Assembly: GCA_965240465.1 (NCBI GenBank)
Contig: OZ251219.1
Coordinates: 960,001-1,024,000 of the forward strand
Reading direction: 5' to 3'
DNA from: a bacterium
GTDB taxonomy: Bacteria; SAR324; JACQKK01
DNA: 64,000 nt
The position numbers are program-made. Below are positions 18,001 to 21,000 of this stretch, piece by piece (within the stretch, counting starts at the first letter, position 1; each line of letters starts with the position of its first letter).

Positions 18001-21000
18001 CTGGAGGTAATAATCGGGGTAGGGCGTAAGAGGTACCGCACACAAGCAACCTTTCAAGCCGTGAGTTCCCCTCACCCTCCCAATACACACCAGTTGATCG
18101 CGGTCAAACACCTAGCTTAATCCTTAACGCAACACTCAAAAGCAGGTCGGCAAGATAGTTAAATAACAGCTTAAGAAACTGATAGGATCTCGGTTGCTAC
18201 CAGTTTATTAGACTTTCTCGGTGGATTCTTCTTTTACTTCTGTTTTTTCCTCAGGCTTTGCTTCAGTTTGTTCTTCGGTTCTTACTTTAGGTGGGGTGTC
18301 GGCTTTGGTTTCAGTAGCCTTGGTTTCGGTAGCTTTGGTTTCAGTAGCCTTGGTTTCGGTAGCTTTGGTTTCAGTAGCCTTGGTTTCGGTAGCTTTGGTT
18401 TCGGTAGCCTTGGTTTCAGTAGCCTTGGTTTCAGTAGCCTTGGTTTCGGTAGCTTTGGTTTCAGTAGCCTTGGTTTCAGTAGCCTTGGTTTCAGTAGCCT
18501 TGGTTTCAGTAGCCTTGGTTTCGGTAGCCTTGGTTTCGGTAGAGGTGGTTTCTTTAGTCTTGCTAGCTGCCGTGATAGAAGATTTATCAGGGGGAGCAGA
18601 TTTTGGTTTTCGTTTTTTGGTGGCAGGGGGCAGAATACGATCGTGCTTAATGCTATGTAGCTCTAGTAGTCGACTAACTCTCTGACTGGGCTGAGCACCG
18701 ACATCCATCCAGTATTTGGCACGCTCGGTATTGATTTGGCTCTTGTTATCTTCCAGCAGAGGATTGTAACTTCCCAGTCTTTCTATGAAGCGGCCATCTC
18801 TGGGTGCCGAACGCTCTTGTACTACTATGCGAAAGAATGGGCGACTTTTGCGTCCTCCTCGTGCCATCCGAATGCTTAACGACATAAAAACTTACTCCTT
18901 AATGTGAAAATAAAGCTAGAAGATAACAGATATTTGTTCAAATTTGGTTTCTGTTTTGCCTCAGGCGATGTTAGTCCAATTAGTTAGGATAGAAAATCAA
19001 GGCTATGTTTTATGGACGGAGAAGTCAAATACTATGATTTTGATCAATTGAATAGCAGGAGAATATTTGACAATCTCAGCTAGCAACAGCCATAGTTGAG
19101 CGATGATGTCGCCTATTTTTTGTTGTTGATTCAATGTTATGCCTGCTGTTTTTCAGCCCGTAAGGGGCGTGCGCGATTTCTACCCCGAGGACTTGCGATT
19201 GCGGGACTGGTTGTTTGAGCGATGGCGTAGTGGGGGTAAGAAGTTCGGTTTTGTAGAATATGATGCCTGTGTACTAGAGCATGAGGATTTGTATCTGCGT
19301 AAGGCTGGGGAGGAGATAGCTGAGCAGATATATGGTTTCACCGACAAGGGGGGACGCAGGTTGTCCTTGCGTCCGGAGATGACCCCCAGTTTGGCACGTT
19401 TGGTGGTTCAGCGACAAGGAGCGTTATCATTTCCTTTGAAGTGGTTTTCGGTAGCTCAGTGTTTTCGTTATGAGCGGATGACTCGTGGTCGCCGGCGGGA
19501 GCATTATCAATGGAATGCGGACATTGTGGGAGAGTCCTCGCTGGTAGCAGAAGTTGAGATATTGGCACTATTGTTTAGTGTGTTGGCTGATCTGGGGCTA
19601 AGTCCTAAGCATGTACGGGTACATCTTAATCATCGCCAGTTAATGCGGGGTTTGCTACGAACGCTAGGTATTCTTGATATCAAGCATGCAGCAGTGCTAT
19701 CTGCGATAGACAAGCGTGATAAGGTAACCACCACTGAATTGACAAGTATGCTACACCTCCAAGGTCTTGATGAACGTTGTGGGCAATCCTTGTTGGAGGT
19801 GCTGAACAATAATGACCATCAACGCCTGTGCCAGATGGTGGCAGGTAAAGAAGAAGCGGCAGCCTTTAAGGAATTAGATTGGCTGATGGCTAGGCTGGCA
19901 GATATGGGATTTGCAGACTGGTGTCAGCTTGATTTGACGGTGGTACGGGGCTTGTCCTATTATACGGGTACCGTATTTGAAATACGCGATGCGAATGTCA
20001 GCTTGCGGGCTATTTGTGGTGGTGGTCGTTATGACAATTTATTGGAGACCGTAGGTGGAAAACCCATGTCCGCGGTGGGATTTGGCTTTGGCGACATAGT
20101 GATTATGGAATTACTGCAAGAACAAAAATTACTACCTGTGCTTACAAACCAACATGATTGTTTGGTGATTCCCTATTCTAAAGCCGAGCATGATGCTTGT
20201 TTTAGTATCAGCCAGAAATTGCGTCAGCGAGGTTTATCTACCTATGCAGAGCTTTCTGGTCGCAAGCTGCCTAGGTCTCTACAACTGGCAGAAGCCATAG
20301 GAGCTAAGTACGCCATCTTGCTGATGCCCGAAGAGCTAGCACGAGGAAGATTGATTATTAAGAATCTGGCTGAACGCCAAGAAACTCTGGTGGAAATGGA
20401 AGCTTTTCTGGCAGAGCCCAATTTGCAATAACCTAAATCACGGGACTGGTGAACGTCAAAATGCCTGAGCTCGCCTTAATTTATCAAGGTTTTAGGCTCG
20501 GGGTCGGAGGTTGCCTGCCCCATTTTCATCAATGAGATAAGCTTTTCTAAGCGGGCTTTGATTGAAGGAGCCTCCAGTAGTCCCTGTTTCTCTGAGGGAT
20601 GGAAGGGCAATGACATGCTTAATCCGTTCACAATTATAGCTGGGGGTAGCTGGTCAAGCTGGTCAAATTGCATTTGCAGATTGTTCCATTCTGCAAATTC
20701 CTCCAGCTCTTTTAGGAGCTGCTTCAAATCCAGTTTGGCTTCCAATTCATAGCCATCTTGCATAAAAGAAGAAAAATTAACTTGCAAACGACGATAACCA
20801 TCCTTAGGAGGAATTTCCTTACTCACCGCAAAACGCCTTAATCCTTGTAAGGCTACTAAGTAATGTCCCTCTTTGGTTTCCTTTTTCTCGGCGATCCAGC
20901 CCAAACAGCCCACCCGATACAAAGGTTGCTCCAATGCTGTTGAATTTTCTTCCTCAATTGCAGTATCTCCCTCTTCTTCAAACATGTGAGAAATACCTCC

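Follow-up and report, generated by a model that had tools for sequence, protein, structure and literature searches.

A SAR324 genus that has lost the signal recognition particle and retains FlhF, FlhG and remodelled flagellar ring genes

Two related bacteria of the SAR324 lineage lack every part of the SRP (signal recognition particle) machinery, Ffh, FtsY and the SRP RNA, and keep FlhF, the SRP-family GTPase, together with FlhG and the genes for the MS and C rings of a flagellum that they can no longer build. That the SRP loss is real in both genomes is practically certain. The three genes were deleted from three unlinked sites in the ancestor of the genus, after its split from the sister lineage, and the deletion fell in a period when the genome shrank from about 3 Mb to 1.6-1.7 Mb. 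Taken by itself, the absence of SRP is well established here but has precedents; the retained ring module, whose function is putative, is the more surprising part. The genus is a natural double experiment: life without any SRP component, and a flagellum stripped to an MS/C ring with FlhF/FlhG.

The genome under study (G000) is one contig of 1,599,138 bases; the window is a stretch of 64,000 nucleotides (positions 960,001 to 1,024,000 of contig OZ251219.1). The sister species in the genus (G005), one contig of 1,724,560 bases, was searched in full. These are the only two closed genomes examined, and they represent one loss event. They are compared with G002, the sister lineage to the genus, and with further kin (G003, G008, G009, G011, G012 and G015). 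A tree of 12 ribosomal proteins joins G000 and G005 with support 1.0 and places the SRP-bearing, flagellated G002 as their sister, also with support 1.0; a single loss on the genus stem follows. G000 and G005 each have one 16S and one 23S motif match. A metagenome scan with S16 returned 4 loci, all from distant bacteria, and no further member of the genus. An IF2 protein, P0005, which is 68-71% identical to those of the two genomes, belongs to a third lineage of the genus.

In both genomes a single protein carries the SRP54 domain (PF00448) above cut-off. In G000 it scores 205 bits on the NCBIfam FlhF model TIGR03499 (cut-off 174), 89 on the ffh model (cut-off 473) and 97 on the ftsY model (cut-off 261); since it passes the FlhF cut-off, falls far below the other two and has flhG adjoining downstream, it is FlhF, as is the single match in G005. 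Among the 19 family genomes only this pair has one match: at least 3 are found in 13 of the 17 family kin outside the genus, and 2 in the other 4. SRP_SPB, the Ffh M domain, gives nothing above cut-off in G000 (best E 0.17). It is present in 58 of 64 order genomes and in all 26 of high quality, a set that includes neither member of the genus. Separate Ffh N and M profiles, built from 31 kin proteins, detect nothing significant in G000 or G005, the M profile having no match at E<5; the Ffh profile from these kin, an FtsY profile of 15 kin sequences and tblastn recover only FlhF in the two genomes. A weak Ffh G-domain match in G005 (E 0.005) was considered as a remnant and rejected: it is a receiver domain of the CheY-like kind, and G000 has its ortholog.

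Searches for the RNA give the same result. RF00169 has 0 matches in G000, with 65 of 65 candidates scored. In a scan of the order that scored no more than 53 candidates in any genome, it is matched in 56 of 64 genomes, and in 16 of the 17 family members that do not belong to the genus. A covariance model built from 23 kin SRP RNAs, which recovers both of its controls (members of its own training set), has 0 matches in the window and in G005, scanned in all of its 87 stretches, and 0 among the 150 scored of 325 candidates in G000. With nhmmer, the best E across the whole of G000 is 3.6; the large-type Rfam SRP RNA model has no match in the window or at three G005 sites, and scans for the helix-8 motif and with a descriptor return chance-level matches only. 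The genome-wide survey's note had described genome and sister as devoid of ffh, ftsY and SRP RNA, with FlhF as their only SRP-family protein, and other members of the group as SRP-bearing; Pfam, Rfam, kin-built HMMs and the kin-built covariance model bear this out, and G002 and nearly all other kin do keep SRP.

Could the SRP genes exist and have gone missing during assembly or binning? Metagenomes are the probable source of both genomes, which score 83.6% and 89% for completeness, and four fragmented kin also give no ffh match. FtsY, however, is present in three of these four (the check covered all but G025), and the RNA in two of those three. The genes would have to be missing by accident from three unlinked loci in two independently assembled single contigs whose proteins share a mean identity of only 63%, and each of which has a full-looking tRNA set, a tmRNA and a two-phase GC skew. 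The survey's view that the contig ends fall inside one gene and that the chromosome is essentially closed stands with a refinement: the G000 ends do meet within an amino-acid-binding-protein-like gene, but about 10 bases are missing and a 97% identical paralog adjoins, so that a collapsed repeat is possible there. Such a collapse would need to conceal three unlinked genes that are also missing in G005. The ends of G005 join in frame within one aspartate-kinase-like frame, with no repeat at that point, and the two genomes are closed well enough for the absences to be meaningful. The empty sites are contiguous, and the gap in the window is bridged by single contigs (18500-22698 and 18515-24000, from runs X1 and X2) with no alternative joint; as both runs derive from one sample, possibly the source of the assembly, they lend no independent support; the listing of sequencing runs names no RNA holder. 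Loss in assembly or binning is largely refuted, and we consider it extremely improbable.

The vacated sites themselves are visible (Table 1). In G003, G015, G009, G008, G011 and G002, ffh lies directly upstream of rpsP, and in G003 and G015 a divergent efp is directly upstream of ffh. In G005, efp is directly upstream of rpsP across a gap of 259 bp: the ancestral site is kept and ffh is cleanly gone. The G000 site was rearranged later, with hisS now upstream of rpsP and efp moved away, and the G005 gap is the cleaner empty ffh site. The SRP RNA site before dnaX, its place in kin, is occupied by gaps of 248 and 306 bp in the two genus genomes, and in the same two genomes only 44 and 196 bp follow the gene found before ftsY in G011 and G012. 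None of five gaps tested against kin SRP genes aligns above shuffled sequence, with at least 3 of 40 shuffles reaching each score. For the 253-bp window gap, local alignment scores lie inside the range of 40 shuffles and no remnant of ffh, ftsY or SRP RNA is found; model R1, run without filters over positions 8000-26000, gives a best E of 2.9. The survey had called the ffh and RNA places short gaps without remnants, which is correct as to the remnants, but the ffh gap of G000 is also a rearranged junction. The tandem repeat in rpsP is unrelated to the SRP loss, and the S16 tail that it encodes is ruled out as compensation, because SRP-bearing kin also carry long Ala/Glu/Lys-rich S16 tails.

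Table 1. Features at the former ffh site in the window and flagellar genes retained elsewhere in G000
Feature	Frame of reference	Coordinates	Strand	Remarks
efp (presumed, from sequence)	window	9037..9603	+	displaced about 9 kb from rpsP in G000
trmD (presumed)	window	16741..17550	-	55-58% identical to its positional counterpart in kin
rimM (presumed, from position and sequence features)	window	17569..18111	-	in the conserved rpsP-rimM-trmD-rplS-rnhB run; gene order shared with G011, G005 and, in part, G002
rpsP (bS16)	window	18208..18885	-	Pfam Ribosomal_S16, E 1e-24; 225 aa with low-complexity C-terminal tail; follows ffh in kin
15-bp tandem repeat	window	18305..18542	-	about 16 copies; codes for the S16 tail
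253-bp gap	window	18886..19138		expected ffh place; junction formed by rearrangement, with the starts of both divergent genes, rpsP and hisS
hisS	window	19139..20431	+	Pfam tRNA-synt_His, E 3e-48; divergent from rpsP
FliM derivative	G000 contig	14788-15759		Pfam match
FlhF-FlhG	G000 contig	505907-508660		FlhF with FID, linker and NG domain, all GTPase motifs, no M domain; flhG downstream
FliG	G000 contig	738312-738980		Pfam match; N and M domains only, 38-residue deletion
FliF derivative	G000 contig	1088072-1089061		Pfam match; two helices
FliN (two)	G000 contig	1091939, 1140446		Pfam matches

The published SRP losses, in bacteria with a full membrane protein set, are old or deep. Because the loss described here falls within a single genus whose near relatives still have SRP, every candidate compensation can be compared before and after it. 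The Sec machinery is intact, as the survey had stated: SecY, SecE, SecG, SecA, SecD, SecF, YajC, one YidC and trigger factor are all present. Membrane proteins with at least 3 predicted helices number 130 and 123 among 1034 reciprocal best hits, and 60 have at least 6.

An unrecognised dedicated replacement might take the form of a new adaptor or of tuned surfaces on SecA, SecYEG, YidC or the ribosomal exit site. Leptospira offers a precedent, with a novel gene beside its Sec genes (PMC4758666, in the part available); here, by contrast, yajC, secD and secF are consecutive with no inserted gene, and SecA has a tail type common to SRP-bearing kin. A YidC2-type bypass is rejected: there is no second YidC and no extended basic tail, the tail being 11 residues long with net charge 0, like that of 22 kin. 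Extra constraint on SecY is likewise discarded, since its identity of 0.90 looked high but pairs of kin reach 0.88-0.91, and SecY is no outlier. At the ribosome, uL29 and uL24 show the most change at conserved sites. The two genomes have both altered 5 of 15 kin-conserved positions of uL29, compared with 55 of 777 for 11 other ribosomal proteins (one-sided p 0.0035, uncorrected for 12 tests), and 6 of 30 of uL24; the two proteins touch SRP or the signal sequence, and for uL29 a contact with SecY is described as well (PMC4737761, accessible sections). However, in the SRP-bearing G002 these columns differ at 3 of 15 and 6 of 30 positions, and the replacement of the family's uL29 tryptophan by serine is a weak and unspecific candidate, as solved uL29 structures from other bacteria include chains with serine there. 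The uL29 and uL24 changes are a weak hint at most, and we regard a dedicated replacement as unlikely.

Slower protein synthesis can also make up for the lack of Ffh: E. coli survives ffh deletion via translation-slowing suppressors (PMC7844537; PMC8299109), which in the available text include IF2 M454R, IF3 P100S and S3 W22R (PMC7844537). At these residues no lineage-specific change is found, the sites being unchanged or altered family-wide. IF3 P100 is kept, as are both S3 tryptophans, one of which we take to correspond to E. coli W22, and the Leu at the IF2 M454 site is dismissed as compensation, being shared by 30 of 30 next relatives. Membrane-helix hydrophobicity shows no shift in 10 orthologs (p 0.28-0.63), a sample small enough to leave the comparison underpowered. 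In YidC, SecY and the suppressor sites, there appears to be no dedicated compensation for the loss of SRP.

Because the known bypasses that were tested came out negative, we favour a default route: membrane proteins are probably inserted independently of SRP, in a manner tolerated by slow growth. Ribosomes show intrinsic affinity for SecYEG (PMC8082313, as far as available), and translating ribosomes or membrane-bound mRNAs would reach SecYEG and YidC directly, with SecA and SecDF handling periplasmic loops. In a small cell with slow growth and slow translation this route would suffice, with no dedicated substitute having evolved; the single 16S and 23S motif matches are an indirect sign of slow growth. 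We infer this mechanism from the negative tests and the E. coli literature; slow-growth tolerance is preferred to a replacement machine because the before-and-after comparisons found no compensation.

The survey had taken the flagellum to be gone, a picture that would leave FlhF as a lone survivor. This is half right. FlhA, FliP, rod and hook proteins, flagellin, MotB and FliI are absent from G000 and G005, and queries with kin FlhB, FliR and FliH find no match in either; all 17 other genomes of the family have FlhA. The losses thus cover export gate, rod, filament and stator, but FlhF, FlhG, FliF, FliG, FliM and two FliN are kept in both species, all as open frames. FlhF is no lone survivor: it retains its FliG-interaction domain (FID), its GTPase motifs, its activator FlhG and the ring genes.

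FlhF is the third SRP GTPase, and it might have taken over targeting or receptor duty, its module delivering nascent membrane proteins. It is indeed intact and strongly conserved in both SRP-free genomes (FlhF and FlhG each have 72% identity between the two species, which puts them near the 80th percentile of 1034 orthologs), and the other flagellum-less genus, represented by G037 and G038, shows the reverse pattern, with FlhA, FlhF, FliG and FliF lost and SRP kept. Yet there is neither an M domain nor an SRP RNA for reading signal sequences, the FID is unchanged in alignment with kin, no new domain has been gained relative to them, and the genomes still have the known partners FlhG, FliG, FliF, FliM and FliN. 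Nothing indicates that other SRP-free lineages need FlhF; Dehalococcoides is not known to have a flagellar system. A takeover of targeting by FlhF is very improbable; the ring module explains the retention of FlhF better than SRP replacement does, and we infer that FlhF is kept for the ring module and not for targeting.

FliF, FliG, FliM and FliN lie above the Pfam domain cut-offs and below the NCBIfam equivalog cut-offs. The ring proteins evolve fast, with 43-59% identity between the species (4th-36th percentile) and 22-28% to kin, and they are shortened and scattered over the chromosome. A 38-residue deletion is common to the FliG of both species, whose ends also nearly coincide. Most of the C domain, which FlhF binds together with M, is missing (PMC11236974, which in its available part describes the FID). 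The short FliG clusters with canonical FliG and not with the second paralog of kin (support 0.94). Searched against 1.84 billion representatives, it finds only the two genus proteins at E<1e-30 and 1019 weaker matches, mostly full-length FliG, whose genomic context is not visible. The FliF derivatives keep two membrane helices and a C-terminal end that aligns with kin FliF.

Low identity, to kin and between the species, truncation and dispersal are what decaying leftovers would show, or genes turned to another role. Between the two species, dN of the ring genes, FlhF and FlhG is 0.19-0.53 and dS about 2 or saturated, and FlhF, FlhG and the remodelled FliF, FliG, FliM and FliN are, by these rates, under purifying selection. 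Pure decay is quite improbable, because every frame is open in two species whose synonymous sites are saturated, the FliG deletion occurs in both copies, which also end almost alike, and FliF keeps its helices and C-terminal end. The retained ring module is very probably functional. It may serve as a polar landmark or signalling scaffold, which we consider about as likely as the control of division.

The latter reading draws on Campylobacter jejuni, which has no Min system and blocks polar division via FlhF, FlhG, FliF, FliM and FliN, the export gate not being needed: flhF, flhG, fliF, fliM and fliN mutants make minicells, whereas export-gate mutants make none or far fewer, and FliG is largely dispensable for the phenotype (PMC3228812, according to the portion available). 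G000 and G005 have the same set, FlhF, FlhG, FliF, FliM and FliN present and MinC absent. Among the five genomes checked, MinC is also absent in G002 and G011 and present in G038. By analogy with C. jejuni, the ring module would mark the poles and hold FtsZ away from them, and division-site control is a plausible but tentative candidate for its job. In such a case an MS/C ring without export apparatus or filament could, together with FlhF/FlhG, act as a stand-alone Min substitute in an SRP-free cell, which we put forward with the same caution. FliG is kept here although it is little needed in C. jejuni, and it has lost most of the domain bound by FlhF; both points, like the fast evolution and the scatter of the ring proteins, count against division control. 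The division site could instead be set by another MinD-like ATPase, whose gene neighbours a DnaJ/RodZ-like one. The contrast in FlhF and MinC between the two flagellum-less genera rests on two flagellum-loss events.

If the module is functional, the division role reported for Campylobacter flagellar bases can outlive the flagellum. Direct tests are limited in an organism that seems not to have been cultured; the module itself, a system of six to seven genes, is testable in E. coli. In the literature outside most subscription papers and supplementary gene tables, neither SRP loss in this group nor a set of FlhF/FlhG with an export-less MS/C ring in a flagellum-less cell is reported. The available text of PMC7426153 has 0 occurrences of 'signal recognition' or 'SRP', and no such export-less ring set is described in the accessible parts of PMC13063649 and PMC10746217.

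SRP loss itself, as the survey had noted, is known from a few other lineages: it is published for Leptospira, Dehalococcoides and SAR86 (PMC4758666) and for Parcubacteria (PMC4508563), each source being partly available. The genus is therefore a new, independent case of a known phenomenon, and as far as sequences can tell it shows every testable feature of SRP-free bacteria. As in these lineages, ffh and the SRP RNA are missing and Sec and YidC are kept; as stated for Leptospira, ftsY is missing too (PMC4758666); and as in Parcubacteria, YidC has no basic C-terminal tail (PMC4508563). In contrast to the published cases, the loss is comparatively recent and restricted to a single genus, close relatives carry SRP and the vacated sites can still be seen, and YidC is of the diderm type with a periplasmic domain, accompanied by a full SecDF-YajC. 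Streptococcus mutans bypasses SRP via YidC2, and Rhodopirellula and Oceanicaulis have long-tailed YidC (10.1101/2022.11.21.517368, PMC4508563, both in the parts available); viability without SRP is alike, whereas here a single YidC has a short neutral tail. The E. coli ffh suppressors, in which slow translation replaces SRP, are a plausible model for the genus, although the suppressor residues are kept or changed family-wide (PMC7844537, in part).

For the ring module, the closest parallel is the polar division inhibitor of C. jejuni, with which it shares FlhF, FlhG, FliF, FliM, FliN, the absence of MinC and independence from an export gate (PMC3228812, available portion); Borrelia FlhG is a further system for comparison (PMC13712777, likewise in part). 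C. jejuni and Borrelia build full flagella, whereas in this genus no flagellum is possible and the predicted ring proteins are shortened and encoded at dispersed loci.

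The genome under study (G000) and its single-contig sister species (G005) both retain MS/C-ring genes, scattered and remodelled, alongside FlhF and FlhG, and in neither genome were an export gate, rod, filament or stator found with them. MinC was likewise not found in either species. The ring genes together with FlhF and FlhG are a candidate flagellum-free module for division site or polarity.

The two species have further proteins in common. A FliN/SpoA domain forms the C-terminal end of a low-complexity, repeat-rich protein of about 1000 aa, which is well conserved between the two species only at this end. 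A membrane-anchored coiled-coil protein of 195 aa, 61% identical between them, has weak matches to MgtE_N/FliG-like and FlbB collar sequences and may be part of the ring module. Alternatively, division or shape control could fall to a second MinD/FlhG-like ATPase and the DnaJ plus RodZ-like gene that comes after it, another candidate.

Coordinates of the features in the two species (G000 contig positions unless marked as window positions)
Feature	G000	G005
FliF derivative	1088072-1089061, outside window	
FliG derivative	738312-738980, outside window	
FliM derivative	14788-15759, outside window	
Two FliN	1091939-1092235 and 1140446-1140724, outside window	
FlhF and FlhG	505907-508660, outside window	
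Counterparts of ring genes and FlhF/FlhG		stretches L148, L098, L165, L149, L183, L202
FliN/SpoA-ended long protein	676307-679309	L205:3828-6869
Membrane-anchored coiled-coil protein	1422320-1422904	L149:15725-16309
Second MinD/FlhG-like ATPase, then DnaJ plus RodZ-like gene	1266145-1268143	L153:13361-15150
Fused RNase HII-like and small nuclease-like gene	window 15320-16336	
16S and 23S rRNA genes	about 771000 and 1083000	about 1634600 and 569400
S10 operon between rplB and rpsS (break in G000, inserted ORFs in G005)	75763 and 102065	469618-470999
Site of missing dnaX-recR small gene	460348-460351	1588847-1588950
Tandem repeats, 15-bp period	window 8683-8959, 10286-10516, 18305-18542	

Gene structure and order in the two species show further features. 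What we take to be an RNase HII-like gene is joined in both with the next, presumably small nuclease-like, gene; in the SRP-bearing relative G011 the two are separate. The 16S rRNA gene, accompanied by tRNA-Ile and tRNA-Ala, is unlinked from the 23S rRNA gene, and both rRNA genes appear to be single-copy. The S10 operon of G000 is broken between rplB and rpsS, the point at which G005 carries two inserted ORFs. A small gene, presumably ybaB-like, that lies between dnaX and recR in related genomes is absent from both G000 and G005. Along its contig, G000 has large repeat-rich regions near 256-273 kb, 310-325 kb, 793-810 kb and 887-889 kb. An IF2 protein from public assemblies (P0005), with 68-71% identity to the IF2 of G000 and G005, suggests that the genus includes a third lineage.
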